From: Kiritimatiellia bacterium
Lineage (GTDB): Bacteria > Verrucomicrobiota > Kiritimatiellia > CAIQIC01 > Lenti-01
Direction of reading: 5' to 3'
NCBI GenBank assembly: GCA_028681135.1
Contig: JAQUJC010000006.1
Span: 3,189 to 67,188, forward strand
Length of the DNA: 64,000 bases
This document shows positions 22,294 through 42,374 of this stretch, one piece after another. The translations under genes and the position numbers were made by a program. The first letter of the stretch is position 1; each line of letters opens with the position of its first letter. The notes below the pieces were generated by a model. That model searched no databases, was not told the origin of the DNA, and saw only the letters and a program-made list of their open reading frames with translations.

Positions 22294-23850
22294 TCAGCCG
22301 GCGATGGTTTTCAGGTCATCGTCAGCAGTCGTGATGGGGGTCAGGCCGAACTGTTCGACCAGGACATTGAGCACCGTGGGCGAGACAAACGCGGGAAGCG
22401 TGGGCCCGATACGGATGTTCTTGATGCCGAGGGCGAGGAGCGTCAGCAAGATGCACACCGCCTTCTGCTCGTACCAGGAGAGGATCAGCGAGAGGGGCAG
22501 GTCATTGACGCCGCACTCGAAGACCTTGGCCAGGGTGAGGGCAACCTGAATGGCGGAGTAGGCGTCGTTGCACTGGCCCATGTCCAGCAGGCGCGGAATG
22601 CCGCCGATGTCGCCGAGCTGGTCTTGCAGGTGGTTGAAGCGGAATTTGCCGCAGGCCAGCGTCAGCACGAGGGAATCCTTGGGCGTCTTCTCGACGAACT
22701 GGGTGTAGTAGTCGCGACCGAGCTTGGCACCATCACAGCCACCGACCAGGTAGATGTGCTTGATGGCACCGGATTTGACGGCGTCCACCACTTTGTCGGC
22801 GACGGACATCACCGCGTTATGGCCGAAGCCGGTCATCAGCTCATACGCGCCAGCCGTTTCTTCCGTCCAGCCGCCGAGATCGATGGCCTGTTGGATGATG
22901 GTGGAGAAGTCCTTATGACCAGTATCATCCGCAGCGATGTGCTGGACACCGGGCCACCCGACTTCAGCCGTGGTGGCGAGGTGCTGGATATAGGAGGGGC
23001 GCGGCGGCATGATGCAGTTGGTGGTGTAGAGGACCACGCCGGGCAGGTTGGCAAATTCCTTCTGTTGGTTCTGCCAGGCGGTCCCGAAGTGCCCCTTGAG
23101 GTGCGGGTACTTCTTCAGGCCGGGATAGGCGAGCGCGGGCAGCATTTCACCGTGGGTGTAGATGTTTACGCCTTTGCCTTCGGACTGTTCAAGCAGCATC
23201 TTGAGATCGAGCAAATCGTGGCCGGTGATAATGATGAAGGGGCCCTTGTGTTGCGTGAGCGAGACGCGTGTCGGTTCAGGATGGCCATAGGCACCGGTAT
23301 TGGCGGCGTCGAGCAGCTCCATGCAGGCGAGATTGATCAGGCCGAATTCCATGATCAGCTCGAGCCATTCCTCGACGGTATGCTCATCGCCGAGGGCCTT
23401 CATGCCCTTCTGGAACCAGGCGGAGACCTTGGGGTCGGTCTTGCCCAGGACGCGGGCGTGGGCGGCATAGGCCGCCATGCCGCGCATCCCAAAGAGCAGG
23501 GTTGAACGCAGAGAGACGACATCGGTGTCGCCGTGGAAAAGGTCTTCTGGGCGGTATGTGTTGGCCCCGCCGGCGGCCACAGCCGCCTGCAGAATACGGT
23601 CGCGCATCGCGGCATTGTCCTGGGGGTCAAAGTTGACGTTGGTGATCGTCATAAACAGCGCATCCATGAACAGCGCCTCGAACGTGGGGTTGGCGGGCTG
23701 GCCATCAATGGCGCGGGCGAGAGTAATCAGTGCCGCACTGATTTCATCCTGTAAGTTCGAGACTTCGGGGGGCTTGCCACAGACGCCGGTGCGGGTGCAG
23801 CCGGTGCCGCCTGCGGCTTGCTCGCATTGGAAACAAAACATTTCGCTCAT
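22294..23850 (-). CDS. hcp: hybrid cluster protein / hydroxylamine reductase
   Basis: The N-terminus reads MFCFQCEQAAGGTGC. NVNFDP, GKYGHPEPT, GHDLLDLKMLLEQSEGKGVNIYTHGEML and LGGCDGAK are present, and the C-terminal LSWYEQKAVCILLTLLALG is conserved. A GGAGAA RBS lies upstream. Confidence 0.95.
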   Translation of the reverse strand: MSEMFCFQCEQAAGGTGCTRTGVCGKPPEVSNLQDEISAALITLARAIDGQPANPTFEALFMDALFMTITNVNFDPQDNAAMRDRILQAAVAAGGANTYRPEDLFHGDTDVVSLRSTLLFGMRGMAAYAAHARVLGKTDPKVSAWFQKGMKALGDEHTVEEWLELIMEFGLINLACMELLDAANTGAYGHPEPTRVSLTQHKGPFIIITGHDLLDLKMLLEQSEGKGVNIYTHGEMLPALAYPGLKKYPHLKGHFGTAWQNQQKEFANLPGVVLYTTNCIMPPRPSYIQHLATTAEVGWPGVQHIAADDTGHKDFSTIIQQAIDLGGWTEETAGAYELMTGFGHNAVMSVADKVVDAVKSGAIKHIYLVGGCDGAKLGRDYYTQFVEKTPKDSLVLTLACGKFRFNHLQDQLGDIGGIPRLLDMGQCNDAYSAIQVALTLAKVFECGVNDLPLSLILSWYEQKAVCILLTLLALGIKNIRIGPTLPAFVSPTVLNVLVEQFGLTPITTADDDLKTIAG

Positions 23851-24037
23851 GGGGAATTCTCCTTGTGGGGGTTGTTATTTTAAAGAGGTCAGGTGTCAGG
23901 GGTCAGACGGAGTGGTCGCCGGTCCTGGTGGGGCCGGCTGCTGCCTGTATAGTTCCGCGCCTAGCAGGCGCATCTGTAATTGGCCATGATTTCATTTCGT
24001 TCGGACTCCTGAATTCTCAATTCTGTATGCTGTTTGC

Positions 24038-24769
24038 TCATTCCTCAAGCAGAGAACCGTCGGTGCTGACGGTGACGATTTGCCATGGTATCATTTTGCC
24101 GCTGGCTTGCAATGCGCGCTTGGCGGCATCGGCGATGCCGCCGCAGCAGGGGACTTCCATGCGCAGGACGGTGAGGCTCTTGATGTCGTTCGCCTGCAGG
24201 ATGGCGGTGAGTTTTTCCGCGTAGTCGCCTTCGTCGAGTTTGGGGCAGCCGATGAGAGTGACCTTGTTTCGCATGAATGTGTTATGGATGTCGGCATAGG
24301 CGAAGGCGGTGCAGTCGGCGGCCACCAACAGCGCGGCATTCTTCAGATAAGGGGCGCCCGGATTGACCAGTTTGATCTGGACCGGCCAGGTCGTCAGCTC
24401 CGAAACCGGTCGACCGGCCGGTGTGGAGTCAGCCGCTTCCGGGGTCGATTTGCGCTCAATCGTCTTGGCCATCTGGCCGGGGCAGCCGCAGGGCAGGGGC
24501 GGTTTTGGAGAGGCTTCGGCCGCCGTCTTCTGTTCGGCCATGCGTGCCTGGACTGCCGCTTCGTCGTACTCGGCGGCTTCGCGCTCGATCATCTGGATGG
24601 CATCAGTGGGGCAGGCGGGCAGGCAGTCGCCAAGCCCGTCGCAGTAGCTGTCGGACACGAGTTTGGCCTTGCCGTTCACCAGTTGGATGGCGCCTTCGTG
24701 GCAGGCGCTGACGCACAGGCCACAGCCGTTGCAGAGGTCTTCGTCGATGGAAATAATTTTACGTATCAT
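24038..24769 (-). CDS. 4Fe-4S dicluster ferredoxin-domain protein with a C-terminal Cys-containing domain of unknown function (hcp-associated)
   Basis: Two CxxCxxCxxxCP motifs are present (CNGCGLCVSACHEG and CDGLGDCLPACPTD). The C-terminal domain (ADCTAFAY...LIGCPKLD...MEVPCCGG) is paralogous to the CDS at 25303-25779. The likely start is the internal Met MIRKII at 24769, which overlaps the upstream gene by 4 bp. Confidence 0.75.
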   Translation of the reverse strand: MIRKIISIDEDLCNGCGLCVSACHEGAIQLVNGKAKLVSDSYCDGLGDCLPACPTDAIQMIEREAAEYDEAAVQARMAEQKTAAEASPKPPLPCGCPGQMAKTIERKSTPEAADSTPAGRPVSELTTWPVQIKLVNPGAPYLKNAALLVAADCTAFAYADIHNTFMRNKVTLIGCPKLDEGDYAEKLTAILQANDIKSLTVLRMEVPCCGGIADAAKRALQASGKMIPWQIVTVSTDGSLLEE

Positions 24770-25203
24770 GCGGGGACCAGTTGGGTTTTGTCTAACGATC
24801 TCGCCAAACTTGCGAGCGTGGTGTGTTTCATGGTTGTGTGGAGCCGTCCATTTTCCTGTTCGATGAGGCGGCCGATGCTGCAAGCGCGCCCGCCACAAAT
24901 TTTGGGATCGAGCAGGCAACGGTGAGGGTGCAGCGGGGGGCCGCCGGCGGCCTCGTAGATATCGAGCAAGGTGATCTGCTGGGCCGGGCGGGCGAGGCGG
25001 ATGCCGCCATGCCGTCCACGTGCGGTCTCAAGCAGGCCGCCACGCACGAGCCGTTGGACAATCTTGGCCAGATGATGAGCAGAAAATCCTAGCTCTTGAG
25101 CGAGTTGCGGAGATGGGCGATAGACACCGTCATCCTCCGCAATCCACAGACACGTGTGGAGCGCAATGGATAGCGATTCAGGAATTTGAAGTATACCGAT
25201 CAT
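24766..25203 (-). CDS. Rrf2-family transcriptional regulator (NsrR/IscR-like, three-Cys cluster ligands)
   Basis: It has a winged-HTH N-terminus and the C-terminal CLLDPKICGGRAC Cys triad. It sits next to hcp. Confidence 0.85.
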   Translation of the reverse strand: MIGILQIPESLSIALHTCLWIAEDDGVYRPSPQLAQELGFSAHHLAKIVQRLVRGGLLETARGRHGGIRLARPAQQITLLDIYEAAGGPPLHPHRCLLDPKICGGRACSIGRLIEQENGRLHTTMKHTTLASLARSLDKTQLVPA

Positions 25204-25302
25204 GGGTGGTTTCTAAACAGGTATTACAATACCAGATATAGGCTCACCCGCAACTATTTTTAGAAAAATAGGAACGCGGGGGGGGCGCGCTAATAGTGCA
25301 GG

Positions 25303-25779
25303 CTAGAGGGTCAGCCACTCGGACTGGCGGATCTCACCATTAATGCCGACGATGATCTCCTTGACGGGAACCTTGCGGGTGGCGGATTCCATGGCGCGGC
25401 GCGCGAGGGCGGACAGCCCGCGGCAGCAGGGCACTTCCATGATCATGACGGTTAGGGTGTTGATGTTGGCGTCGTCGAACCACGCGCGGATTTTATCGAC
25501 GTAGACCTCCTGGTTGCTGTCGAGCTTCGGGCAGGCGATGGCGATGGCTTTGTCCTGGAGGTGGTCGGTGTGGTAGCCGCCGAGGGCATAGGCTACGCAG
25601 TCGGCCGTTAGCACGACGTCGGCCCCCTTGAAATAGGGCGCCAGGGGCGAAATCAGGTGGAGTTGGACTGGCCACTGGCGCAATTGGGATGGTGCCGAGC
25701 CCGGGGCAACCGGTTCGGCGGCGGCTTGGGGTGTGCGCAAATCCATCATCTTTGATCCGGGGCAACCTTGGAAGTTCAT
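25303..25779 (-). CDS. Cys-containing domain protein of unknown function (paralog of the C-terminal domain of the 24038-24769 ferredoxin)
   Basis: Shared motifs include WPVQ.HL..P.APY.K.A..L.AADC.A.A, ...CPKLD... and MEVPCC.G. A GAGG RBS lies 8 nt upstream of the ATG at 25779. Confidence 0.55.
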   Translation of the reverse strand: MNFQGCPGSKMMDLRTPQAAAEPVAPGSAPSQLRQWPVQLHLISPLAPYFKGADVVLTADCVAYALGGYHTDHLQDKAIAIACPKLDSNQEVYVDKIRAWFDDANINTLTVMIMEVPCCRGLSALARRAMESATRKVPVKEIIVGINGEIRQSEWLTL

Positions 25780-25836
25780 GCGTGTTCCTCTCTTTTCATG
25801 CTCGTTTTTACAGGGATGTTGGCTGGAGTCCGGCGG

Positions 25837-26649
25837 TCAGGACGCGTCCTGCGGCGGGGGGATGCCCCAGCGGGTTTCCAGTTTCGCCACGAATTGCTCC
25901 AGTTGTTGGGGCAAGCCGCCGAAGTGGCGGTCCACCTCGGCAAATTGCGCATACATCTGGCCCACCTGAGCATCCAGCAATAGGCGGTCCATCCAGGGAT
26001 AGAGAATCTCGTCTTCCTTGCGGATGTGGTCCCGGAGCAGGTCGGCATAGGCCAGCAAGTGTTTTCCGGCGGCGGTGGCATCCCGCTGCTCGACCGCGGC
26101 GACGATGGCGCGTACGTGTCCGCGGGCAGTCTCGTGATCGGTCCGCATGGCCTTGAGGATGTCCATGTCCGGCGAGAAATAGCCGAAGAGGATGTCTTCT
26201 TCCTTGGCGTGGTGGAACTGGTCGGCATAGGAACGGATGAACTCCACGCCGTTGAGAACGAGTTGGTGGCCCTCGGCGGTAGCCAGATCGGCGCGCTCGA
26301 CCACGTGCGGGATCAGGGCCGCCCAGCGCAAGATCCAGCGGTGCTCGGTCATCAGCTTGCGAATAGGCGGCGAGGTGCCGGCCTGGCCTGTCGCAAAAGG
26401 ACGCCGTTTCCGCAGGGGAACGGGCGCGGTGCGGCCGGGCTCCACTACCCGTGCGATGCGTTCCATCATGTCCCGCTCAGCTTCCGGTTCGAGGTGGTGA
26501 ATGTCGACGATATCCTTGAGCAGGCAGGTGCCCACGCTGCAATCCACGCAGCCAATCTGGAAATCCCCCAGAATGACACCGATGGGCGGGTGCGCCGCAA
26601 TGACGTCCTTGATGGGGTGGTCCAGCGACATTTCGAAAGATGTGGACAT
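25837..26649 (-). CDS. RIC/ScdA/YtfE-like di-iron protein: N-terminal DUF1858 (hybrid-cluster-associated redox-disulfide-like, CxxC) fused to a hemerythrin HHE cation-binding domain
   Basis: The N-terminus carries DCSVGTC. Hemerythrin-like H...H/E...E spacing is present (HRWILRW, FHHAKEEDILF, EDEILYPWMD). The preferred start is the ATG at 26649 with a GGAG RBS; the track ORF begins at a TTG at 26664. Confidence 0.75.
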   Translation of the reverse strand: MSTSFEMSLDHPIKDVIAAHPPIGVILGDFQIGCVDCSVGTCLLKDIVDIHHLEPEAERDMMERIARVVEPGRTAPVPLRKRRPFATGQAGTSPPIRKLMTEHRWILRWAALIPHVVERADLATAEGHQLVLNGVEFIRSYADQFHHAKEEDILFGYFSPDMDILKAMRTDHETARGHVRAIVAAVEQRDATAAGKHLLAYADLLRDHIRKEDEILYPWMDRLLLDAQVGQMYAQFAEVDRHFGGLPQQLEQFVAKLETRWGIPPPQDAS

Positions 26650-26821
26650 GCTCCGGTTCTCCAATTAAGACAATGATGTCTTATATTAGCCCGCGCGGGG
26701 CCATGTCGCAACTGGAATTCCAAAAAAAACGATGGGCGGCCGCTGGCCGAGGGGGCGCTGCGGGGTCATGATTGACGTGATGGGGGCATCTGCTATTTTG
26801 GGAGCCAGGAGTCTGAATCAC

Positions 26822-28518: not shown

Positions 28519-28632
28519 TCTCCTTCTGTATTCTTCAGCGTGCGAACGGGATATCGATGGTGAACCGGCTTTGCAGGACCGTGTTGAATCCCGTCGCGCA
28601 TGGTCGCTCCATGGGGACGCAGTTTTCCCATG

Positions 28633-29499: not shown

Positions 29500-29511
29500 G
29501 GCGTTCCTCCT

Positions 29512-31332: not shown

Positions 31333-31494
31333 GGCGAAACCCTCTGTTTTTTATTTGTTTCATCGAGTCCGTCCTCCGCGCTTCTCCACCGGAATTAAGA
31401 CTACAATGTCTTAATATACCACAACACAAACCAGGTCAATAGAAATAGTGGAGAAAATTACGAAAAAAATAACACGGCCGTTATGCCGGCCCCT

Positions 31495-31971
31495 TCATAG
31501 CCAGCGGCGCACACGGGAGCAGTAGCGCCGATAGGTGTCTTTGAATGTTATCTCCAGTTGTTTTTCTTCTTGCCGGATGAAAAAAACCGCGAAGAGCGCA
31601 CCGAGCGCCGGAATCACCAACCACGGTGTCGCCGTTCCCAGCAAACCGGCAACGCCCGACAACATCAGTAGAATTCCGAGGTACATCGGGTTGCGCGAAA
31701 AGCGAAATGGCCCGCTCGTGACCAGCCGGTGCGGTCTGCCAAAGGGGGTGGGGGTTGTGCGATGACGACGGAATATTCGGAGGGCGTAAGCCGCAAGGGC
31801 CGCGCCGACCAGCAGGGGGACAGCACCCCATAGCGTCCACGGAAAAGAGAGAATCTGTCTGATGGGGACCAGAAAATGGGCTGCCAGCATGGCACCGAAA
31901 GCGGTCCACACATAAACCGGGGGCGTTGGACGCTTCATGGGGTCATCCGCCCCGCCGCAAATTTCGGGCAA
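31495..31971 (-). CDS. isoprenylcysteine carboxyl methyltransferase (ICMT)/phospholipid methyltransferase family membrane protein
   Basis: It has 3-4 TM helices. The conserved SGPFRFSRNPMYLG motif and the C-terminal EE..L...F motif are present. The start may be the Met at 31938. Confidence 0.7.
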   Translation of the reverse strand: MPEICGGADDPMKRPTPPVYVWTAFGAMLAAHFLVPIRQILSFPWTLWGAVPLLVGAALAAYALRIFRRHRTTPTPFGRPHRLVTSGPFRFSRNPMYLGILLMLSGVAGLLGTATPWLVIPALGALFAVFFIRQEEKQLEITFKDTYRRYCSRVRRWL

Positions 31972-32030
31972 AGACGCCCTGAGACGATGCGGCGGGGGAA
32001 TGGCGTTTATTTATTGTTGTTGCCCGGGGA

Positions 32031-32192
32031 TCAGGTGATTTTTTCGAAATCACTTTTGGGTACGCCGCATTCTGGGCAGACCCAATCATCGGGTAAATCG
32101 TCGAAGGACGTGCCGGGCGGTTGGCCGTTTTCCGGATCGCCTATCGCGGGATCATAAATGTAGCCACAAACGGTGCAGAGGTACTTATCCAT
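32031..32192 (-). CDS. rub: rubredoxin (53 aa; not in supplied ORF track)
   Basis: I translated the minus strand to [53 protein letters not shown]. It has both rubredoxin CxxCG...CPxCG knuckles and the DLPDDW motif. Confidence 0.85.
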
Positions 32193-32215
32193 GTCGGTCC
32201 TTTCGGTTTGTTATG

Positions 32216-33235
32216 TTAATCAATTCGCTCGGACGATTGGGCCATGAACCCCTCGGGGTCCATCAACAGTTTGATGTATTGGGCCCGAGTATAGACCCAC
32301 GGATCACGGGTGTTGCGGTGGCTGAGTTTGCCGCGGAAGGCCGACAGCGAGTCGTAGCCGTGAGACGCCATCCATTCCGTGAGCTGTTGGAGCATCACCG
32401 GAATGTGCTCCAGACCGTGACGCATCAGGGAACTGACGGTTTGGACCGTTGTGGCACCGGCCAGAATCATCCGGATGATATCGGTGCCGGAAAAAATGCC
32501 GGTACTGGAGCAAATATCCGCCTGGAGGCCCCCCGCCAGCAGCCCCGCGTAGCGCAAGGGCAGCCGATGGTCGGCTTCATGACTGAGAGTGAACGCCAGG
32601 GCGCTGTGTTCCTGCTCGATGTCGATTTCGGGATCGAACAGCCGGTTAAATAAAACAAAGGCCGCTGCCCCTGCCTCGTCCATGCGGTGGACAACATTCA
32701 GCGGATTGGTATAGAAATAACTCAGTTTGACGCTCAGCGGGATGCGAACGGCTTGCGTCAGATCGTGGATCAACTCCAGTTGTTCGCTCTCCACGGATTC
32801 TGCGGGTTGCTGTCCGTTGTGTGGGGAGGCAAACAGGTTGCACTCCAACCCGTCCACGCCCGTATCTTCCAGGCGTTTGGCATACTCCAACCATGTGGCC
32901 TTGGTCATGGCATTTAGACTGGCAATCACCGGAATGCCGATAGCCTCTTTGGCCTTTTTGACCCAAAAGAGGTGTTCTTTGGGGCCGCCGTGCTGCACCT
33001 GGGGTGCCACCGTGATCATTTCAGCGGAACGGGCCTCTTCGCGATGCAGGGTTTCGTCGAATTCAAAGCGTTCGAGCTGAATTTGCTCTTCGAAAAGCGA
33101 GGGGGTCACGATGGCACCGGCCCCCATGGCCTCGATCTGCTGGATGGTCTCCACATTGGCGGTCAAGGGCGATGCCCCGACCAGAAGGGGATTGCGCAAG
33201 GGAAGGCCCATATAGGTGGTGGTGAGGTCTGCCAT
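32216..33235 (-). CDS. dihydroorotate-dehydrogenase-like FMN TIM-barrel oxidoreductase (DHOD/DPD family)
   Basis: The N-terminus reads GLPLRNPLLVGASPLT. It has a TIM-barrel Gly-rich phosphate-binding end (GGLQADICSSTGIFSGTD). It lies in an operon with the FNR-like and flavodiiron genes. Confidence 0.6.
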   Translation of the reverse strand: MADLTTTYMGLPLRNPLLVGASPLTANVETIQQIEAMGAGAIVTPSLFEEQIQLERFEFDETLHREEARSAEMITVAPQVQHGGPKEHLFWVKKAKEAIGIPVIASLNAMTKATWLEYAKRLEDTGVDGLECNLFASPHNGQQPAESVESEQLELIHDLTQAVRIPLSVKLSYFYTNPLNVVHRMDEAGAAAFVLFNRLFDPEIDIEQEHSALAFTLSHEADHRLPLRYAGLLAGGLQADICSSTGIFSGTDIIRMILAGATTVQTVSSLMRHGLEHIPVMLQQLTEWMASHGYDSLSAFRGKLSHRNTRDPWVYTRAQYIKLLMDPEGFMAQSSERID

Positions 33236-33295
33236 GGTCTTTTTCCTTTCTATGAGATGGGCGGCGGCGGATGGCGGTCGCTGAGGATTTTCATA

Positions 33296-34045
33296 TCAGG
33301 TGGCCGGCGGATTTACGGGTGGCGCTTTGGGGGGCGGCGACGAGCTCATCACCTCGGTATGAATCCGGGCGGGATCGCTCCCGAGTGCCTGAATATTATT
33401 CAGCAGGAGGTTGTGCATTTGCGGTGGACCACAGAGATAGACCTCGGCGTTGGCCACGTCGGCATATTCCGCGATGGTGGCCGCATCCAGCAGTCCGGAG
33501 CGGCAGGTTTCGGCGCGGCCCGGAGTACAGGCGGTCACGGCCGCGTCGTCTTTCCACAACACATGGACGATCTGTAAGTCGATCTTCTCCGCGATGGCTT
33601 GCAGTTCCGCGCGATGAATGATGTCTTCAACGGTATTGTTGGCCCACAACAGGACCATCCGGTTCTGGGTTCCGACCCGTGCCCAATGGCGCAACACGCT
33701 GAGAAACGGCGTGACGCCAATTCCGCCGGCAATGAAGGTGAGGCGGGGCTGTTGTTCCACATTTTTACAGAATGCGCCATAGGGGCCGCGAACACGAACG
33801 TCCGTTTCCGGTGTGGCGTGTTGCAGCGCGGTCGTGAAGGGGCCAACTGCTTTCACTGTAATGCGGAGTTCATCCTCTTCCGGCGCGCTGCTGATCGTAA
33901 AGGTGTACTCGGACGACCAGGTCTCCCCCTGGCGGATGCTGAAACGGAGGAACTGTCCCGGCGTCCAGGTAGCAAACGGCGGATCCCCGATCGTCAGGGT
34001 GACAATCCGAGGATTCTCATTTACCACTCTCGTCAGGGTTGCCAT
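33296..34045 (-). CDS. ferredoxin-NADP reductase-like FAD/NAD(P)-binding oxidoreductase
   Basis: The FAD-binding R.YS/T-like motif (SSEYTFTISS) and the NAD-binding GGIGVTPF motif are present. It carries the C-terminal LCGPPQM. Confidence 0.7.
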   Translation of the reverse strand: MATLTRVVNENPRIVTLTIGDPPFATWTPGQFLRFSIRQGETWSSEYTFTISSAPEEDELRITVKAVGPFTTALQHATPETDVRVRGPYGAFCKNVEQQPRLTFIAGGIGVTPFLSVLRHWARVGTQNRMVLLWANNTVEDIIHRAELQAIAEKIDLQIVHVLWKDDAAVTACTPGRAETCRSGLLDAATIAEYADVANAEVYLCGPPQMHNLLLNNIQALGSDPARIHTEVMSSSPPPKAPPVNPPAT

Positions 34046-34080
34046 GGGGATGCCTACAGAATCCGGCTGATCAGAGGTGA

Positions 34081-35250
34081 TCAGAGCTCGGCGTGTTTGT
34101 CCTTGATTTGGTCCGCCAGTGCGTCCAGGGCCGTGAAATCATCTGCGCACGGAATGCCTTTGCACATCACCGTGCCGAGGAGGTCCACCTTGAGATTGGG
34201 GATCGCGCCGGCGATGTGTTCGACGGCCTTGGTGGCCCAGCCGTACGAGCCGATGACAGCGGCATATTTGACTTTAGGGCGCAGGGCATTGGCCAGATGG
34301 GCCGCATACACGACCGCGGGATGCGGGCCGACCTGCACGGTGGGGGTCCCGATCACGATCGTGGCGGCATCCACCATCGCCATGGCCAGCTTGCCGATAT
34401 CGGTGACGGTCAGATCAAAAACATGGACTTTGACGCCGCGCGCCGCCAGGGCCCCGACCAGGTGGTCGACCATTTGCTGGGTGCTGCCGTGCATGGAAAT
34501 ATAGGGCAGCACGACTTCATTTTTGACCGTATCGGACACCCAGTCGCGGTAGGCATCGAGAATGAACGCCGGGTCGTCATACATCGGCCCGTGGCTGGGG
34601 GCGATGATCTGGATGTCGCGCGTTTCGACTTTGGCGATGTTGGAGCGAATGATCGTCTTAAACGGCATCATGATTTCCGCATAATAGCGCTTGGCGGCTT
34701 CATAGACCGTGGGTGGGTCTGCCACGTAGAGGTCAGTGGTCGCCAAGTGCGACCCAAAGAAGTCGCAGGAAAAGAGGATGCGGTCTTCCGTGAGATAGGT
34801 GCACATGGTTTCCGGCCAATGGACCCAGGGGGTCAAGATGAACTCCAGTGTTTTGCCACCCAGATCGAGGGTGTCGCCATCCTGAACGATCATAAAGCAG
34901 TCCTCGGGCAGGTCGAGCAGGTCCATCAACATGCCCTTGGCCTTGGTATTGGTGACGACCTTGGCGGCGGGATACTTGGCCAACACATGCGGAATGCAGC
35001 CGGAGTGATCCTGCTCCGCGTGCTGCGCAACAATGTAATCGACCGTGTCCACTTCTTCGAGCTGGCGTTGGAGCACATCCCACGTCTCGGGATCGACCGT
35101 ATCCACCAGCGCCACCTTGTCGGTGCCGCGCACCAGATAGGCATTGTAGCTGGTCCCGTCCGGCAGTGGGATCAACGAATCGAAGAGCCGCCGGTTCCAG
35201 TCCACTACCCCCAGCCAACTCACGCCATCTGTGATTTTACGCAATTGCAT
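34081..35250 (-). CDS. flavodiiron protein (FprA/ROO-type O2/NO reductase)
   Basis: It has a metallo-beta-lactamase-like di-iron domain (SYNAYLV, HAEQDHSG) followed by a flavodoxin-like domain. The start was chosen at MQLRKITDGVSW, which aligns to FDP N-termini. Confidence 0.85.
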   Translation of the reverse strand: MQLRKITDGVSWLGVVDWNRRLFDSLIPLPDGTSYNAYLVRGTDKVALVDTVDPETWDVLQRQLEEVDTVDYIVAQHAEQDHSGCIPHVLAKYPAAKVVTNTKAKGMLMDLLDLPEDCFMIVQDGDTLDLGGKTLEFILTPWVHWPETMCTYLTEDRILFSCDFFGSHLATTDLYVADPPTVYEAAKRYYAEIMMPFKTIIRSNIAKVETRDIQIIAPSHGPMYDDPAFILDAYRDWVSDTVKNEVVLPYISMHGSTQQMVDHLVGALAARGVKVHVFDLTVTDIGKLAMAMVDAATIVIGTPTVQVGPHPAVVYAAHLANALRPKVKYAAVIGSYGWATKAVEHIAGAIPNLKVDLLGTVMCKGIPCADDFTALDALADQIKDKHAEL

Positions 35251-35405
35251 CTGCCAATCTCCGTTTAACTGTTCTGTGGACTCATTGGGTTTGAGTCCTC
35301 TGTGTTGTGTTGCGCCTACTTTACACAACGTCGACGAGAAGCGCAAACGGACAGATGAATTCGCTGCGAATACGGGCGGAAGCAACGACAACTCAACAGG
35401 GGGGG

Positions 35406-36674
35406 TTACTGATAAGGGCTGCGCTGGCCGAATTGTGGGCCGCGGTGAACGGCGGCATAGCTGAAATCCTTATCGAGCAGCTTGTGGCGGAAGCGGGATA
35501 CATCGACTTGATCGCGGATCAAGGCACCGTAAAAACCGGATTTCTGAATGTCGCCCACGAATACCATGCCCACGATACGCCCATCTTTTAGCACGAGCTT
35601 CTTGTAGATGGCATCCCCCTCGGACAGGCTGACCACTTCGACATTCTCCCGGCTATCGCTGTCCACCAGCACCTGACCAAGGGAAATCGCCGGAATCTGA
35701 TGAAATTGAACGGCATTCTGGATGCCGACAGCACCGGTATAGGGCCGAGTCCGGCCAGCCATGTTATAGGCGGCGTACTTGCCTTGCAACACGGCATTGA
35801 ACCAGGTGGCCGAGGGCATTCGCTTGCCGGTACTGACGTCATCGATTTCGATGGCGTCGCCGGCGGCAAAAATGTGGGGGGCCGAGGTTTGCAGCCGATT
35901 GCTCACCCGAATACCCCGTGCCGTTTCGAGACCGGCTTGAGCCGCCAAGCCCTTGTTGGGCTCGGTGCCGGTCGCCACGATGACGAAATCGGCCTGCACC
36001 TGGGGCTTTTCGGCGAGCATGACGCCGGTGGCGCGGTCAGACCCGTTAATCGCGGCTACGCTTTGGTTGAGAATGATCTGGACGCCCATCCGTTCCAGAT
36101 CCCGGTGGATAATGGTGGCGCCTTGGGCGTCGAGTTGGTTGGGCAGGATTTGGCCGCAGCGTTCGACTACGGTCACCTTGAGCCTCTTGCGTGCCAACGC
36201 ATAGGCGGCCTCCAGCCCGGCAAATCCTGCGCCGATGATCGCGACGGTTTGCGTCGGTGATGTTTGGGCGGTGATCGCCTGGGCATCTTTTAGGGAATGG
36301 AAGGTGCAGACGCCCTCGAGGTCGCAGCCCGGGATGGCGGGCAACCAGGGGCGGGACCCCGTGGCCAGCAGCAATTTATCGTAGACGACGGTTTCTCCGT
36401 TGTCACAGATCACCGTGTTGGAGCCGGGTCGAATGCTGGTGACCCGCACGCCGGAGGAATAGTGAATCCGGTGATCGGCCGCAAAATGATCGGTCTTGAA
36501 ATACAGGTCACGTTCCTGCAGGCGCCCGTCTGCGTAGCGTGAAATCAGGCAACGCGAATAGGGCGGTCCGGCCTCTTCGGTGAGGATGCGGATGTCTCCG
36601 TCCGGGTCGAGTTTCCGGAGGTCTTCGGCGGCTTGTGCGCCCGCCGCGCTGGCACCGATAATGACATAGGTCAT
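35406..36674 (-). CDS. FAD-dependent pyridine nucleotide-disulfide oxidoreductase, NAD(P)H:rubredoxin oxidoreductase (NorW/NROR-like)
   Basis: The start MTYVIIGASAAG carries the GxGxxG motif, and a second dinucleotide site VAIIGAGFAGLE is present. The true start at 36674 overlaps the cooF-like stop (ATGA). Confidence 0.8.
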   Translation of the reverse strand: MTYVIIGASAAGAQAAEDLRKLDPDGDIRILTEEAGPPYSRCLISRYADGRLQERDLYFKTDHFAADHRIHYSSGVRVTSIRPGSNTVICDNGETVVYDKLLLATGSRPWLPAIPGCDLEGVCTFHSLKDAQAITAQTSPTQTVAIIGAGFAGLEAAYALARKRLKVTVVERCGQILPNQLDAQGATIIHRDLERMGVQIILNQSVAAINGSDRATGVMLAEKPQVQADFVIVATGTEPNKGLAAQAGLETARGIRVSNRLQTSAPHIFAAGDAIEIDDVSTGKRMPSATWFNAVLQGKYAAYNMAGRTRPYTGAVGIQNAVQFHQIPAISLGQVLVDSDSRENVEVVSLSEGDAIYKKLVLKDGRIVGMVFVGDIQKSGFYGALIRDQVDVSRFRHKLLDKDFSYAAVHRGPQFGQRSPYQ

Positions 36675-37168
36675 GGTACATTTCCTTTGGCGTTGAAAAC
36701 TGGTTCGGGTACGTCGCTCACCGCCAGCACGTTCATGGGACAGGCGGCGACGCACGCCGGGGTGTCTAGGTTCGGGCACAGGTCACACTTCAAGGCCACA
36801 GCAAAGGAAGATTGATCTTCGCCGCCCGCGTCGTAGGACGGTGAAATAACACCATAGGGACAGGCCATGATGCACATCCAGCAACCTACGCACTGCTGCT
36901 CGTGGCCGACGTTGTTGACGATTCCTGTCTCGGGGTCTTTCTGCATGCAGCCAGCCATGCAGGCGCTGACGCACAGCGGCTCGACGCAATGGCGGCACAC
37001 CAGCGGCACGGGTCCGCGGTCGTATTCGATCAGAATGCGGCTCTTGGGCTCCGGCTTTTCCAGCGTGGCGAGGGCGGCGTTGCCCGCGCGAGAATGCGCG
37101 GCGATGCACGCTTGTTCGCATCGGCGGCAACCTGTGCAGTCTTCAGCTGTTACAGTCAGTTTTTTCAT
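36671..37168 (-). CDS. cooF: CooF-like 4Fe-4S ferredoxin (iron-sulfur electron-transfer subunit)
   Basis: Four Cys clusters are present (CTGCRRCEQAC, CRHCVEPLCVSAC, CVGCWMCIMACP, CDLCPNLDTPACVAACP). It lies immediately downstream of cooS. Confidence 0.8.
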   Translation of the reverse strand: MKKLTVTAEDCTGCRRCEQACIAAHSRAGNAALATLEKPEPKSRILIEYDRGPVPLVCRHCVEPLCVSACMAGCMQKDPETGIVNNVGHEQQCVGCWMCIMACPYGVISPSYDAGGEDQSSFAVALKCDLCPNLDTPACVAACPMNVLAVSDVPEPVFNAKGNVP

Positions 37169-37190
37169 TGCATGTCTCCTGGGGCTGGAT

Positions 37191-39080
37191 TCAGGACTTC
37201 TTGAGGCCGAGCGCTCCGCGCTTGGCGGCGATATGCGCTTCGATGGCGTCTGCGGCCTTCACGGGGTCCTGTTCAACAAAAACTCGGCCACCGGTCAGGC
37301 TTTCGACGTCCTGGGTCAGAATGCGGGTGACCAGCGGACTACCCATGATCGGTGGGGCCGGCGAGAGGTGCAGCGCCATCCCGAAGGCCACCGCTGTGAA
37401 CGCGTCCGCCACCGCCTTCTGTTCCATGTATTCGGGTGCCGATGCCACCACGGGCAGGTCCGGCACGTCCACGCCCAGCGCGTCTGCGACGGCCACGACG
37501 GTGGCGATGATCTTGCCGATGTCGGTGCAACTGCCGTAGGACAGGCAGGGCGGCACGCCCAGCGCGCCACACACTGAGGCGAGGCCGGGGCCCGCATGTT
37601 TGACCGAGTCGGTGCCCATGAGTCCCGCGTTTTGCATCGCGCTTGAGCAGCAGCCCGCGCCGATGACCAGGATATTGCGCTTGATCAGTTCACTCGCCAG
37701 CGTGGCGATATGCGCGCCCGACTCGCCTTCGCGGACCGTCGTGCACCCCACCAGGGCGGCAATGCCCTGCACCGAGCCGTTGGCAATCACGTCGATCAAC
37801 GGCTGGACGGTTCCGCCGAGCGCGCCGATTACGCTTTCCGTGGTGAAACCGGCAATGGCGGTTTGCTGGGTCGTGGGCACGTTGACGGCCCCGCGCTTTC
37901 CGAAGGCCGTGACAGCACGGTCGAGAATCGCCTCCGAAATGTCCACGGCCGTGTGCGGTTCGAATTCCAACCGTTCCACGCCGCCTTGCCGGATGACCTT
38001 GTCCGTGGAAATTAGGTGGGTGTGATATTTCGGAGCAAACTGTTCCGCGATGCTGGGCATGACGCAGTTATAGTCGAAGGCCAGCACGTCCACGGCTCCC
38101 GTGGCCAGCATCAATTCCTGCTGAATCCAGTTGCCGATCTGGCCGTAAAAGACGTCCTTGTATTCGGAGGCAATATTGAAGATTTGCTGGCCCTCGCACA
38201 GCGAGCCGTAGATTTTCAAGCCATTTTTGGCCCCGGCCTGCCGGGCCTTCTCCTGCCAGTTCTGCTTGCGCGCCGCCTCCAGAACCTTGATGGCCAGCAG
38301 GGGCTGGTGCCCGTGCATAATCACGTTGACGGCGTCCGGGTCGAGAACTCCGATATTGACCGAACCTTCGTTGGGCTTGGCCGTTCCGGTCAAGATTTCC
38401 TGCATGACGGTGATGCAGAATAGGCCGGCATATTCGTTGGCGATGCCCATGCGCAGGCAATGCGACAGCAGGTCTAGCACATCGTTGTTCACGTTGGTCA
38501 TCGTCTTCGACAGGCCGGTCGCTACTTCCGAGTTGGGACCGCCCGGAACGATGCCCAGCTTGCGCCAGACCGCAAGACGTTTCGGCGGTGCCAGGACGTC
38601 GACGAGCCGCATGGGGTCGTAGTCATTGCTGTTGATCTGCTGGATAAAGAGCGCACCGAGGTCACGCGCCATCTCCAGATCGGAGCCGCCGATGTCAAAC
38701 TGGGCCGCGAGTGCGCGCAATTTCTCCGGTTCCTTGATGGCATAGTCGGCCTGGCCTTCGCCGACAGCCTGCAGGGTGCGGGCCACATTGCGGGCATGGT
38801 AGACGTTGGCGGCGGTGCCCTGAGCACACTTGGCCAGCAGGTTGCGTGTCACGATCAGGTCGGCGGATGCGCCGCACACGCCGCGGTCGGCCTTGCGGGT
38901 GATCTGGCACGGACCGTCCGTGCACAGCGTGCAGCAGATGCCGAGTGTTCCAAAGGCGCATTGCGGCTGCTGGGCCGCGAACCGCTCATAGATCGTGGTC
39001 ATCCCATCCTTGCGGGCGACTTCATACATGTAATCGGACAGGCCGTCCGCCGGCTGGTTGCGATACTCAATGGTTTTCAT
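37191..39080 (-). CDS. cooS: anaerobic Ni,Fe carbon-monoxide dehydrogenase catalytic subunit
   Basis: The N-terminal cluster motifs are CAFGTLGICCTLCTDGPCQI and GVCGASAD. Its ~630 aa length, HGHQP, and the GCTTVREGESGAH and GAGCCS C-cluster regions are typical of CooS/CODH. Confidence 0.9.
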   Translation of the reverse strand: MKTIEYRNQPADGLSDYMYEVARKDGMTTIYERFAAQQPQCAFGTLGICCTLCTDGPCQITRKADRGVCGASADLIVTRNLLAKCAQGTAANVYHARNVARTLQAVGEGQADYAIKEPEKLRALAAQFDIGGSDLEMARDLGALFIQQINSNDYDPMRLVDVLAPPKRLAVWRKLGIVPGGPNSEVATGLSKTMTNVNNDVLDLLSHCLRMGIANEYAGLFCITVMQEILTGTAKPNEGSVNIGVLDPDAVNVIMHGHQPLLAIKVLEAARKQNWQEKARQAGAKNGLKIYGSLCEGQQIFNIASEYKDVFYGQIGNWIQQELMLATGAVDVLAFDYNCVMPSIAEQFAPKYHTHLISTDKVIRQGGVERLEFEPHTAVDISEAILDRAVTAFGKRGAVNVPTTQQTAIAGFTTESVIGALGGTVQPLIDVIANGSVQGIAALVGCTTVREGESGAHIATLASELIKRNILVIGAGCCSSAMQNAGLMGTDSVKHAGPGLASVCGALGVPPCLSYGSCTDIGKIIATVVAVADALGVDVPDLPVVASAPEYMEQKAVADAFTAVAFGMALHLSPAPPIMGSPLVTRILTQDVESLTGGRVFVEQDPVKAADAIEAHIAAKRGALGLKKS

Positions 39081-39466
39081 GGCTGCGCGTTCCTTTTCTG
39101 AGTTTGCGGCAATCTGTATGGGGATTCACATCGGGTTGGCTCGGGATTGCGAGGGAGGGGGGGGCCCGTCCCATTCTGCCGCTTCCGCGGCCCGAACCAG
39201 ATCGTCCGGGACAAATAAGACATTTTAGTCCGATATGTCAAGCGGGAACAGGATGACGACGGGGCGGTGGGGCGGGGACGGGGCAGGAGGCAAGTGCGGC
39301 GACTCGCAGATGTGTCCGGTGCGCTCCACCCTGACCGGAACGGATGATCCGGATTTGTTCTACGTTTTATAGCGGATATGGCCAGTTCCTTCTGTAAGGT
39401 GCGTCTGGTTGAGTGATCGGGCAAAATGGCCTGACCGGGTCCGCGAACTAGCCTGGATTATTCAGG

Positions 39467-40903: not shown

Positions 40904-42154
40904 TCAATCTTGGCGGTCCAGCGCCTGGCGGAAATCCTCCACGATATCCCGGGCATTTTCGATGCCGACCGATACGCGGATGGTGTCGTCCGTGGCCCCG
41001 AGCCGCGCTTTCTCCTCGTCGGAGTAATCGGCGCAGATGGTGCTGGCCGGATGGATGACCAGCGTCTTGGCATCGCCGATGCTGGTGAGGTTCTTCGCCA
41101 GTTTCAGCCGGTTGATGATCCGGAAAGCGGCGGCCTTGTCGGCGACGCTGAATGTCAGCAATCCGCTGGCGCGCCCGCCATAGAGTCGGGTGATCATTGC
41201 CCGGTGAGGAGAGTCCTCCAGCCCCGGATAGTTCACCCGGGCCACGCGGGGATGGTCCTGCAGGAATCGGGCCAGTGCCAGGGCGTTCGAGCAATGCCGG
41301 TCCATGCGCAGCGCCAAGGTCTGGAGTCCTTCGGTCAGCAGAAAGGAATTGAACGGCGCGGCGCATCCGCCCAGGTCCCGGTGCACACGCTTGCGGGCCT
41401 GCGCCGTGAATGCAAAATTCCGAAATGTCTGGTGGAATGGCGCGAAGTGCGGAAACGCGGGACTGTTCCAGTCGAAGACACCGCGGTCGATGATGGCCCC
41501 GCCGATGGTCGTGCCGGTGCCGTTGATGTATTTGCTGGTGGAGTACGCCAGCAGGTCGGCCCCGAGGCTGACGCCGGTGGCCAGAACCGGCGAAGTGACC
41601 GTCGTGTCGATCATCAAGGGCAGGCCCGCATCGTGCGCGAGTTGCGCCAGCGCGGGCACATCGGGCACGTCGAGCTTCGGGTTGCCGATCGTTTCCACGA
41701 ACAGCAGCCGCGTGCGGTCGGTGATCGCCTTACGGAACCCATCCAGATCCAGCGGATCCACGAATCGCGCGCTGATGCCGTATTGGGGCAGTGTGTCCCG
41801 GAACAGCGAATAGGTGCCGCCGAAGAGCGAGGACGACGAAAGAATCTCGTCGCCCGCGCGCAGGATCGTCAGCGCCGCCGTGGAAATGGCCGCCATGCCG
41901 GAGGCCGTGGCGATGGCCGAGCCACCGCCTTCCAGAAGGGCCAGCCGTTTTTCCAAGGCCCCCGTGGTCGGATTGCCCATCCGGGTATAGACCGGTCCCG
42001 CGGCACGACCGCGAAACAGGTTCTCCAGTTCCTCCGCCGTGGGCTTGGCAAAGGAAGACGATTGCACGATGGGCACGGCGGTGGCACCCCCAGGGCCCGA
42101 TTCCAATCCGCCGTGGACTAGTTGGGTTTCGATCTGATATGGATTTTTACTCAT
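40904..42154 (-). CDS. metY: O-acetylhomoserine sulfhydrylase (PLP-dependent Cys/Met metabolism family)
   Basis: It has the PLP-lysine motif YSTSKYINGTG. ETIGNP..DV and the N-terminal QLVHGG are present. Its 416 aa length is typical. Confidence 0.85.
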   Translation of the reverse strand: MSKNPYQIETQLVHGGLESGPGGATAVPIVQSSSFAKPTAEELENLFRGRAAGPVYTRMGNPTTGALEKRLALLEGGGSAIATASGMAAISTAALTILRAGDEILSSSSLFGGTYSLFRDTLPQYGISARFVDPLDLDGFRKAITDRTRLLFVETIGNPKLDVPDVPALAQLAHDAGLPLMIDTTVTSPVLATGVSLGADLLAYSTSKYINGTGTTIGGAIIDRGVFDWNSPAFPHFAPFHQTFRNFAFTAQARKRVHRDLGGCAAPFNSFLLTEGLQTLALRMDRHCSNALALARFLQDHPRVARVNYPGLEDSPHRAMITRLYGGRASGLLTFSVADKAAAFRIINRLKLAKNLTSIGDAKTLVIHPASTICADYSDEEKARLGATDDTIRVSVGIENARDIVEDFRQALDRQD

Positions 42155-42374
42155 GACCGCGGAACCTCAAACAGCGATGTAGATAAAAAGCGCTTTGCCC
42201 AATCGGGGCGTATCACGACGGTCGTCTCGTGGTGGGCCGAATTGGCCGGATTGCCGCGGGTCAGTTCGATGATCTCCATTCCCAGGCGAAGCGCGCCACG
42301 GACGTCGGCCTCCCACACCGTGGAAATATTTGTTTCACGCTGCGGAAAACAAAGAGAGGCGGGATGCACCGAAT

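Follow-up and report, generated by a model that had tools for sequence, protein, structure and literature searches.

A clade-D cooS gene cluster next to a flavodiiron island in a Kiritimatiellia bacterium: probably two redox-stress modules side by side

Gene row and its division into two modules

We analysed a 64,000-nucleotide stretch of DNA from a Kiritimatiellia bacterium (GenBank assembly GCA_028681135.1, contig JAQUJC010000006.1, positions 3,189 to 67,188; hereafter the window, in whose numbering positions are given), and in particular a row of minus-strand genes at 31-39 kb. The row begins with cooS, encoding a protein of the CooS-type carbon monoxide dehydrogenase (CODH) family, and runs on into genes for a flavodiiron protein (FDP), further flavoproteins and rubredoxin. 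In a previous sequence-only reading, seven of these genes were taken for a single operon in which CO oxidation could directly fuel the detoxification of O2 or NO. The positions of all seven open reading frames (ORFs) were verified, and profile searches upheld the family and domain assignments of all seven proteins. From its upstream end, the row contains the following features.

39213..39241, minus strand: putative cooS promoter, with −35 TTGACA (39241-39236), a 17-nt spacer and −10 TTATTT (39218-39213)
37191..39080, minus strand: cooS, for a CooS-type CODH-family protein of 629 aa assigned to clade D (TIGR01702)
36671..37168, minus strand: cooF-like gene for a polyferredoxin of 165 aa (Fer4_11 and related Pfam families), 22 bp past cooS
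35406..36674, minus strand: FAD/NAD(P) oxidoreductase (FNOR) of 422 aa (Pyr_redox_2 and Rubredoxin_C), with a 4-bp overlap with the cooF stop
35304..35346, minus strand: putative FDP-island promoter, with −35 TTGCGC (35346-35341), a 17-nt spacer and −10 TAAAGT (35323-35318)
34081..35250, minus strand: class A FDP of 389 aa (ODP/Lactamase_B and flavodoxin domains)
33296..34045, minus strand: FNR-like FAD/NAD(P)H reductase of 249 aa with two domains (NAD_binding_1, FAD_binding_8/6)
32216..33235, minus strand: FMN protein of 339 aa with the dihydroorotate dehydrogenase (DHOD) fold (NF005741, 'dihydroorotate dehydrogenase-like protein')
32031..32192, minus strand: rubredoxin of 53 aa (NF045768) with two CxxC motifs (Cys6/9/39/42)
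31944..32002, minus strand: very stable RNA hairpin without a U-tract, found by folding, between the rubredoxin and PEMT genes
31495..31938, minus strand: PEMT/ICMT-like membrane protein of 147 aa (PF04191), the conserved end of the island
31462..31491, minus strand: weak terminator-like hairpin and U7 tract (hairpin and U7 at 31476-31491), after the PEMT gene

The intergenic distances from cooS to rubredoxin are, in order, 22, −4, 155, 35, 60 and 23 bp. The close packing described previously (gaps of 0-60 bp or overlaps) holds at five junctions, but not at the 155-bp gap between FNOR and FDP. The PEMT/ICMT-like gene, which begins 92 bp past rubredoxin, adds an eighth co-directional member. 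In agreement with the sequence-only reading, no hydrogenase, acetyl-CoA synthase (ACS) or CooA/RcoM-type regulator was found in the 64-kb window, and no CooC-type P-loop protein is encoded within it.

Between FNOR and the FDP promoter no terminator-like fold was detected (folding z = −0.19), and in the absence of such a structure after FNOR, read-through from the cooS promoter into the FDP genes is possible. The sole terminator-like site of the gene row is the hairpin with U7 tract past the PEMT gene, which is not significant on its own (z = −1.4). The hairpin at 31944-32002 has a predicted energy of −41.2 kcal/mol (z = −4.25; none of 200 shuffles folded equally well) and may serve in RNA processing or stability, or as a partial terminator. 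An Rfam scan of the window returned no known RNA, and scans of the window for the σ70 and terminator consensus showed no enrichment over shuffled sequences.

The cooS-cooF-FNOR trio is kept in every CooS relative examined, over a range of 94-73% CooS identity (L093, 94%; L003/L004, 87%; L096, 82%; L005/L006, 78%; L007/L008, 73%; L numbers denote the loci compared). Past FNOR, the genes are unrelated in all four relatives whose contigs reach beyond it: an Rrf2 gene in opposite orientation follows in L003/L004, an Ldh_2-family gene in L005/L006, genes for an ABC transporter in L007/L008, and a glyoxalase gene, with three hemerythrin genes further on, in L096. The L093 contig is uninformative on the age of the juxtaposition because it ends 79 bp beyond FNOR.

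We traced versions of the FDP island via relatives of the DHOD-like and FNR-like proteins. Its general form, with square brackets around genes that are present in some versions, is FDP - FNR-like - [RIC/ScdA] - [small ferredoxin - rubrerythrin] - [DHOD-like] - rubredoxin - [DUF488] - PEMT - [Rrf2]. Versions of it occur in L092, L089/L090, L101 and L102/L103, with a reduced form in L091, and the window holds the shortest. In none of the other versions where the gene ahead of FDP is visible does that gene encode a CODH. The closest island, that of L102/L103 (FDP 90%, DHOD-like protein 86-87% and rubredoxin 100% identical), has a divergent gene for a CoA-disulfide-reductase-like protein ahead of FDP. 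The FDP promoter and 5′ untranslated region in the 155-bp gap align with the corresponding regions of the CODH-less islands L101, L102 and L103, the common promoter having the form −35 TTGCGN, 17-nt spacer, −10 TAnnGT. Since the spacer aligns with the FDP upstream regions of islands that have no CODH gene, the FDP genes would have brought their own promoter with them.

The single-operon proposal was thus confronted with three observations: no terminator follows FNOR, a promoter is conserved in the 155-bp gap, and adjacency of the seven genes is not conserved. One dedicated seven-gene operon is at odds with the retention of only cooS-cooF-FNOR in the relatives and with the conserved promoter of FDP. 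The arrangement is best read, from gene order, as a lineage-specific juxtaposition of the cooS-cooF-FNOR trio (module A) and the FDP island (module B). We lean towards regarding the region as a pair of neighbouring redox-stress modules with separate promoters rather than as one dedicated operon. The same gene arrangement is seen in two loci that match the window (L001 and L002; metagenome-assembled genome GCA_028704045.1 and a JGI metagenome contig).

The CooS-family protein, its partners and its promoter

CooS scored 693 bits against TIGR01702 (cut-off 478). The closest solved structures are CooS-V (7B7Q; 504 bits, about 40% identity) and the Thermococcus CODH (6T7J; 486 bits), with CODH-IV (6ELQ; 450 bits), an active O2-tolerant Ni-CODH, in third place and the D. 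vulgaris CODH (437 bits) after it. The R. rubrum enzyme, CODH-II and the ACS-associated enzymes scored 320-379 bits. CooS-V, a member of clade D-1, has been described as a Ni-free 'deviant CODH' whose Fe/S/O hybrid cluster morphs; it shows no CO oxidation and no CO2 reduction, and it reduces hydroxylamine slowly (Jeoung et al. 2022, PMC9311411).

Residues of CooS were numbered against a CODH-II sequence whose length of 636 aa equals that of the 1SU6 chain and which fits 14 of 14 published ligand numbers. The window protein keeps Cys39 and Cys47 of the D-cluster, as in the [4Fe-4S] type of CODH-II, and Cys48, 51, 56 and 70 of the B-cluster. The C-cluster ligands His261, Cys295, Cys333, Cys446, Cys476 and Cys526 are present both here and in all 62 close relatives considered, and Lys563 is likewise kept. 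The position of the catalytic His93 is occupied by Asn, as in 112 of 117 homologs, and His96 is the sole remaining member of the His96/99/102 proton relay (position 99 is Asn and 102 is Arg). Position 561, His in CODH-II, is an invariant Glu in the window, D-2-like and D-1-like groups and matches the hybrid-cluster ligand Glu556 of CooS-V; position 567 is Asp, not Ile.

The window protein therefore has Glu561, Asp567, a YMEQK motif and the lack of the His93 base in common with CooS-V, but differs from it at position 93 (Asn in place of Tyr), at Cys295 (Glu in CooS-V) and in the D-cluster, which is of the [4Fe-4S] type with Cys39/Cys47, whereas CooS-V has a [2Fe-2S]-type motif (Cys42, Ser47). 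The changes that define CooS-V are Cys295 to Glu together with Gly42 to Cys and Cys47 to Ser in the D-cluster (PMC9311411). The canonical Cys295, Gly42 and Cys47 rule out a hybrid-cluster protein of the CooS-V type, and Asn93, on the CODH-II ruler, rules out a complete E/F-like active-site motif.

In a bootstrapped neighbour-joining tree with references from clades D-1, E and F, the window CooS belonged to an Asn93 subclade recovered in 98 of 100 bootstraps; the CooS-V group is its sister, and the split between the pair of Thermococcus CODH and CODH-II and the rest was recovered in 100 of 100. By sequence, the protein belongs to clade D. It stands apart from the clade E/F references, and its distance by score is greatest to R. 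rubrum CooS and the ACS-associated enzymes, in line with the sequence-only reading. In the scheme of Inoue, the motif H-C-C-C-C-C / N / K denotes group D-2, with a [2Fe-2S]-type D-cluster (PMC6344411). The subgroup of the window protein (about 60 sequences of at least 55% identity) combines Asn93 with a CODH-II-type D-cluster, a pairing that is not listed in Inoue Table 2 (PMC6344411).

The label 'Ni-CODH' holds in so far as this is a CooS-type member of the CODH family, but with Asn93 and clade D it is not secure. Ni binding and CO oxidation are favoured by Cys295 and Cys526 but disfavoured by the clade, by a second sphere like that of CooS-V and by the loss of His93 and the relay. The proposal that the system is CO-driven is not supported, given clade D, Asn93, the lost His relay, the CooS-V-like Glu561 and Asp567 and the lack of a nearby cooC. 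The last point is not decisive on Ni or CO activity, because some CODHs mature without a neighbouring cooC (PMC13056359).

The cooF product carries four complete [4Fe-4S] Cys motifs, at residues 11, 58, 93 and 128, and is similar to PadI, HydN and the N-terminal region of AegA. The CooS-V gene is presumably solitary, whereas the window cooS is accompanied by cooF and FNOR. FNOR had been labelled NROR/NorW-like, which proved a weak label: at 178 bits it fell well below the cut-off of the NorW model NF003437 (392), and it is closer to PadH (253 bits) and to the N-terminal region of NirB (246 bits), although these matches too lie under their cut-offs. Its best solved relative, over the full length, is chain E of 8C0Z (196 bits), which is described as the potential FAD subunit of an aldehyde oxidoreductase. 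In the relatives, FNOR is always syntenic with cooS-cooF and never linked to rubredoxin or FDP. Because it travels with cooF, FNOR would be the NAD(P)-linked subunit of the CODH module and not the NorW of FDP. The subunit logic of module A, a catalytic subunit with a polyferredoxin and an FAD subunit, is that of phenylglyoxylate dehydrogenase (PadI/PadH) and of the tungsten aldehyde oxidoreductase AorABC. Literature searches found nothing specific on the biochemistry of CODH/CooF/FNOR.

The same three genes in the same order make up the CODH/CooF/FNOR cluster (Whitham 2015; Geelhoed 2016; reviewed in PMC6344411 and PMC8776680), which also resembles module A in its polyferredoxin CooF, its COG1251/NirB-N-like FNOR and its lack of a hydrogenase or ACS. 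This cluster has been proposed to link CO to NAD(P)H and is O2-induced in C. ljungdahlii (PMC6344411); the association with CooF and FNOR occurs in CODH clades C-G (PMC6344411; PMC8776680). Relative to it, the window differs in its clade-D CooS with Asn93 and a CODH-II-type D-cluster, in the position of the module directly upstream of an FDP island, and in an operator in common with an operon for the hybrid-cluster protein HCP. Module A is best read, on these sequence features, as a CODH/CooF/FNOR cluster of known kind in an uncharacterised clade-D Asn93 form.

The operator in question is a palindrome, ATAAGACA-N4-TGTCTTAT, which occurs three times in the window against 0.02 copies expected (up to three mismatches allowed). 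The regulator gene and the operons that carry it are listed here.

39215-39234: palindrome copy at cooS, 13 of 16 positions, over the promoter spacer and −10
31395..31414: third palindrome copy, 13 of 16 positions, just past a TTGACC...TATATT promoter-like site of the beta-helix operon
27397-31332, minus strand: beta-helix / 288-aa / FGE-sulfatase-domain operon, with the palindrome at its promoter in the window and in L003
26732..27256, plus strand: Rrf2-family regulator with likely start Met31 (~26822; TIGR00738, 104 bits)
26665..26684: best palindrome copy, TTAAGACAATGATGTCTTAT, 15 of 16 positions, in the divergent region between the Rrf2 gene and the hemerythrin-HCP operon
25837-26664, minus strand: hemerythrin-domain protein (Pfam), first gene of the HCP operon (22294..26664)
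25303-25779, minus strand: ORF of 158 aa without a match, in the same operon
24038-24919, minus strand: Fer4 protein (Pfam), in the same operon
22294-23850, minus strand: HCP (NF003658, 727 bits; TIGR01703, 670 bits)

The best copy overlaps the −10 of the TTGCGA-N17-TAATAT promoter of the hemerythrin-HCP operon. The cooS promoter is conserved with the 87% relative L003, where it carries a perfect 20-bp palindrome, ATAAGACA-TTGT-TGTCTTAT. In L003 the same three targets have copies, at cooS (16/16), the hemerythrin gene (13/16) and the beta-helix gene (12/16), and the palindrome is also present at cooS in L093. The background amounted to two matches in 1.3 Mb of unrelated loci.

The Rrf2 protein is similar to IscR, NsrR and RirA, missing the IscR and NsrR equivalog cut-offs, and is 69% identical to the Rrf2 protein encoded beside cooS-cooF-FNOR in L003. 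Its Cys-X6-Cys-X5-Cys motif (Cys123, Cys130, Cys136) is invariant in the four Rrf2 proteins compared, in a spacing that we take to be much like that of the cluster ligands of IscR and NsrR. The operator itself presumably differs from the NsrR and IscR consensus. As in hcp regulons of the NsrR/IscR type, a three-Cys Rrf2 gene is divergent from the hcp operon with a palindrome over the −10 regions; unlike them, the regulon predicted here adds cooS-cooF-FNOR and the beta-helix/FGE-sulfatase operon. A like layout occurs in L101, in the order Rrf2 / hemerythrin / AF_0155 / Rrf2 / Fer4 / Prismane.

From their gene content, the hemerythrin-HCP genes are likely to form a nitrosative-stress operon that has its operator in common with cooS. 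We infer that an Fe-S-type Rrf2 sensor co-regulates the CooS module with the hcp operon. The proposed mechanism is that it would repress the cooS, hemerythrin-HCP and beta-helix promoters and be released under nitrosative or oxidative (or Fe-S) stress. An NsrR/IscR-like (Rrf2) regulator is associated with the CODH/CooF/FNOR cluster as well as with the window genes, a link already noted (PMC6344411), and clade D has its strongest genomic co-occurrence with HCP, which was left unexplained (PMC13056359). The operator common to cooS and the hemerythrin-HCP operon, through an Fe-S-type Rrf2, lends independent support to a stress-linked role. The stress-detoxification role proposed earlier is plausible to this extent, but the direct wire from CooF through rubredoxin to FDP is not shown.

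Other relatives of the window CooS seem to be wired differently. Upstream of cooS, the 78% and 73% relatives have CRP/FNR-type palindromes instead of the Rrf2 type (TGTGATATTTATCACA in L005 and TGTAACCCAGGTCACA in L007, both at ~9900-9920), which could be under control of the CooA or HcpR type. In the 82% relative L096, a different Rrf2 paralog, 25% identical to that of the window, is encoded directly upstream of cooS, and an element GGAATGAGA...CTATC(A/G)TTC lies upstream of both the Rrf2 gene and cooS (2880-2990 and 3400-3570).

Module A would thus represent a three-subunit enzyme that connects the CooS site, via the four [4Fe-4S] clusters of CooF and the FAD of FNOR, with NAD(P)(H). By analogy with the proposals for other CODH/CooF/FNOR clusters, we tentatively suggest, at somewhat less than even confidence, that it generates NAD(P)H by oxidizing CO slowly or with high affinity. 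An NAD(P)H-driven reductase working in the reverse direction has almost the same likelihood, since the CooS is of clade D and lacks His93.

In its fullest form the reverse direction means that the CooS-like protein is not a CODH at all, and that electrons would run from NAD(P)H through FNOR and CooF to a clade-D reductase of a stress molecule (hydroxylamine, NO, peroxide or similar), comparable to HCP with its NADH oxidoreductase and co-regulated with HCP. We regard this as possible but doubtful. The sister relation to CooS-V, with its slow hydroxylamine reduction and absence of CO/CO2 chemistry (PMC9311411), points this way, as do Asn93, the loss of His99 and His102, the invariant Glu561, Asp567, the absence of a CooC-type protein from the 64 kb, the operator in common with the hemerythrin-HCP operon, and the published co-occurrence of clade D with HCP, its strongest and an unexplained one (PMC13056359). 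Set against these are the retention of all six C-cluster ligands, including Cys295 and Cys526, and of Lys563, and a TIGR01702 score well over the cut-off. Moreover, the change of Cys295 to Glu is considered a prerequisite for the hybrid cluster (PMC9311411) and Cys295 is kept here, a neighbouring cooC is not needed for the maturation of some CODHs (PMC13056359), and the sequence names no substrate.

The wire originally envisaged would carry electrons from CO through Ni-CODH and CooF, with FNOR as the NROR, to rubredoxin, FDP and finally O2 or NO, all from seven dedicated genes. The precedent invoked for it, Carboxydothermus CODH-IV with rubrerythrin, is correct (PMC1287953). The CODH-IV operon of C. 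hydrogenoformans (cooS-IV, a cooF-like gene, a gene for an NAD/FAD oxidoreductase and one for rubrerythrin; Wu et al. 2005, PMC1287953) resembles the window in placing cooS, cooF and a flavoprotein beside a terminal oxidative-stress reductase, and in the idea of CO as reductant. In contrast, the terminal enzyme here is FDP with rubredoxin, having its own FNR-like reductase and promoter, no rubrerythrin is encoded in the operon, and the CooS is a clade-D protein without His93. Further points in favour of the seven-gene wire are the common direction of the genes without a terminator after FNOR, the Rubredoxin_C domain and NorW similarity of FNOR, the O2 induction of CODH/CooF/FNOR in C. ljungdahlii (cited in PMC6344411) and the recurrence of the arrangement in L001 and L002. 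We nevertheless consider this wire improbable. The adjacency is missing in all CooS relatives that can be read past FNOR and in all islands that can be read upstream of FDP; the conserved promoter of the island sits in the 155-bp gap, and the island brings its own FNR-like reductase. FNOR stays with cooF in every case, is closest to subunits that pass electrons from Fe-S clusters to NAD+ (PadH, 8C0Z chain E) and misses the NorW cut-off, and CooS, without His93 and the His relay and without a cooC in the window, groups with the CO-inactive CooS-V in clade D.

The flavodiiron island and its flavoproteins

The diiron ligand motifs of FDP are intact (HxExDH, present as HAEQDH, and the further His, Asp and His), and they are conserved in its best solved relatives, FprA (2OHH) and the Moorella FprA/NO reductase (1YCF). 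Rubredoxin scored 99.5 bits against NF045768 (cut-off 90), and its gene comes after that for the DHOD-like protein in the window, L089, L090, L092 and L102/L103. A PEMT-like gene comes after rubredoxin or DUF488 in L089, L090, L101, L102 and L103. Rubrerythrin, present in sister islands, is absent from that of the window. Public gene calls missed the rubredoxin ORFs at 5275-5433 in L102, 6711-6869 in L103, 1117-1275 in L090 and 10909-11064 in L091, those of L102 and L103 partly overlapping an over-extended DUF488 call.

No Rrf2-type palindrome is found upstream of FDP. A perfect inverted repeat, GTTGTGT-N12-ACACAAC (35304-35329), overlaps the putative FDP promoter; it was considered as a conserved island operator and rejected, being seen in no other locus except same-species copies.

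The FNR-like gene directly follows FDP in every FDP-bearing island (window, L089, L092, L101, L102/L103), and the two overlap by 4 bp in L092. Its product has no Fe-S motif, only four scattered Cys residues, and belongs to a family of about 30 sequences; closest to it outside the family are dehydrogenase domains from membrane proteins of the ferric-reductase/NOX type. We rejected an identification as PyrK, the electron-transfer subunit of DHOD-B, since the [2Fe-2S] motif is missing and the models gave at most 56 bits against cut-offs of at least 219. The gene occurs without a DHOD-like neighbour in L101 and L104. Judged by its domains and gene position, the FNR-like protein is the best candidate for the NAD(P)H-dependent reductase of the island.

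The DHOD-like protein belongs, at 360 bits (cut-off 303), to the very large family NF005741 (more than 7000 matches), for which no published function was found. It is not a true class 1 DHOD, all DHOD equivalog models scoring far under their cut-offs. Across 195 family members the position of the catalytic base (Cys130 in L. lactis DHODA, Ser in class 2) holds S, V, T, I or A and that of the orotate-binding Asn132 holds K, R or G, whereas the equivalents of Lys164, Asn127, Asn193 and Asn67, which belong to the FMN site and barrel, are invariant. The protein is predicted to share the FMN TIM-barrel fold of class 1 DHOD and of the DPD FMN domain while differing at the base and Asn132 positions: an AlphaFold model (pLDDT 77) matched the DPD/DHOD FMN barrel with a TM of about 0.6, at 16-20% identity to any solved structure. 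A conserved family-specific insertion (SLFEEQ...) covers residues 46-81.

In 80 reference-genome loci, no DHOD-like gene has FDP, an FNR-like gene or cooS as a neighbour, and rubredoxin is nearby in one, 9 kb away. The commonest neighbour, adjoining in 21 of the 80 (L009-L088), mostly in Bacteroidales, is a gene for pyruvate:ferredoxin oxidoreductase (PFOR; ~1177 aa), which hints at a ferredoxin-linked housekeeping role for the family. A scan of metagenome contigs with the DHOD-like protein returned three distant loci (47-51% identity) without island genes. Embedding of the gene in the stress island is confined to the lineage of the window, where rubredoxin is usually the next gene downstream. 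A general conserved module of the DHOD-like and FNR-like genes is contradicted by the 80 reference loci and by L101. Because relatives of the DHOD fold receive electrons from Fe-S or flavin partners, the DHOD-like protein may plausibly transfer electrons to rubredoxin or ferredoxin. The two flavoproteins that had been called unexplained are partly explained: the FNR-like one is tied to FDP, and the DHOD-like one can be placed as an optional island component that is not a DHOD.

Rubredoxin-dependent FDP systems include NRO-Rd-ROO of D. gigas, rubredoxin with NROR and FprA in clostridia and Thermotoga, and NorV-NorW of E. coli. Like them, the window encodes a class A FDP, rubredoxin and a candidate NAD(P)H-dependent reductase together, a combination for O2/NO defence in anaerobes. 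In contrast to them, the candidate reductase is a small FNR-family protein and not an NROR/NorW of the Pyr_redox_2 type, and the island adds the DHOD-fold FMN protein and a PEMT-like membrane protein. In DHOD-B and DPD, the barrel receives electrons from a partner flavoprotein or Fe-S module, and the D. gigas NADH:rubredoxin oxidoreductase that Chen and colleagues are said to have described in 1993 reportedly had subunits of 27 and 32 kDa with FAD and FMN. It is very improbable that the FNR-like (27 kDa, FAD) and DHOD-fold (37 kDa, FMN) proteins form a two-subunit enzyme of this kind that feeds rubredoxin and FDP: both genes do lie between FDP and rubredoxin in the window, L089, L092 and L102/L103, the predicted cofactors and sizes roughly match, and proteins of the DHOD/DPD fold normally take electrons from such partners, but the two are not obligate partners (L101 has FDP, the FNR-like gene, RIC and rubredoxin without a DHOD-like gene; L091 and the 80 reference loci have the DHOD-like gene without an FNR-like, FDP or rubredoxin neighbour), ferredoxin and rubrerythrin genes separate them in most islands, the DHOD-like gene of Bacteroidales adjoins PFOR, the second subunit is of 37 rather than 32 kDa, and the comparison took in no Desulfovibrio sequence. 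The D. gigas genome paper cites the enzyme and names no genes, which leaves room for such a pair (PMC4287179), and no gene assignment was found in the literature searched.

Possible electron routes and surrounding genes

In the two-module reading, module B would represent the modular O2/NO-detoxification island of the lineage, with electrons passing from NAD(P)H to the FNR-like reductase, rubredoxin, FDP and O2 or NO. The DHOD-fold FMN protein could act as an accessory electron-transfer flavoprotein that communicates with small Fe-S proteins. Coupling between modules A and B would be at most indirect, through the NAD(P)H pool and transcriptional read-through. Gene content, conservation, ligands and motifs, and operator enrichment are observed; we infer the electron-transfer steps, the regulator-operator pairing and the sensed signal.

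Several points weigh against the two-module reading and the roles assigned within it. The juxtaposition could be adaptive rather than accidental, as it persists in at least two independent assemblies (L001, L002), and all eight genes may plausibly be transcribed together from the cooS promoter, given that no terminator follows FNOR. The inverted repeat at 35304-35329 is not conserved in other islands. The cooS copy of the operator matches at just 13 of 16 positions, and the putative pairing of regulator and operator is based on proximity. The CooS tree has three references, from clades D-1, E and F out of clades A to H. For the chain from the FNR-like protein through rubredoxin to FDP, no biochemical precedent was found. 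Literature searches for a cluster of CODH and flavodiiron genes likewise found nothing specific.

In a rather unlikely, more specific picture, the Asn93 subclade of clade D would not be a CODH but, with CooF and FNOR, an NAD(P)H-driven reductase of a nitrosative or oxidative stress substrate beside HCP, under a common Fe-S Rrf2 sensor, docked in this lineage onto an FDP island whose dedicated reductase would be an undescribed small FNR-family protein.

Clade D is the least understood group of the CODH family, its one characterised member does not oxidize CO, and a 2026 genomic survey found no clear gene context for it (PMC13056359). The locus offers several handles on this clade, namely a protein with all cluster ligands but without the catalytic His, a CooF/FNOR connection to NAD(P)H and an operator in common with hcp, so that a defined system of three proteins, together with three operator sites, allows clade-D function to be tested. 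The main interest accordingly lies in the chemistry of the clade-D enzyme, whether CO oxidation or an HCP-like reduction driven by NAD(P)H, and not in the link to FDP. If the reductase reading were true, it would provide a first function and regulatory logic for clade D and would account for its co-occurrence with HCP. If CO is oxidized, the docking onto FDP would represent a second independent case of CO as a reductant in oxidative stress, after the CODH-IV/rubrerythrin proposal. Also worth biochemical study are the FNR-like reductase associated with FDP and the very widespread, uncharacterised DHOD-fold FMN family.

Other genes of the window lie on both sides of the row. Just upstream of the cooS region lies a DsrE-TusA-ThiS-ThiF-JAB sulfur-carrier cluster (~42150-44520), followed on the plus strand by genes for an 824-aa fusion of CoA-disulfide reductase, rhodanese, TusA and DsrE2 (44830-47304) and for an Fe/Mn superoxide dismutase (47464-48153). 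The CoA-disulfide reductase-rhodanese fusion was considered as an FNOR paralog and set aside, being only 31% identical and unrelated to the module. In L003 and L103 the fusion, superoxide dismutase and sulfur-carrier genes recur in shuffled positions near the cooS module and the FDP island. At 58498-63666 a P-type ATPase, a DtxR-like repressor fused to FeoA, and FeoB make up a cluster for metal (iron) uptake and regulation. Near the other end of the window, a giant plus-strand ORF (2144-16990; 4948 aa) has Pfam matches only to fibronectin type III and PATR and presumably encodes a surface or adhesin-like protein.

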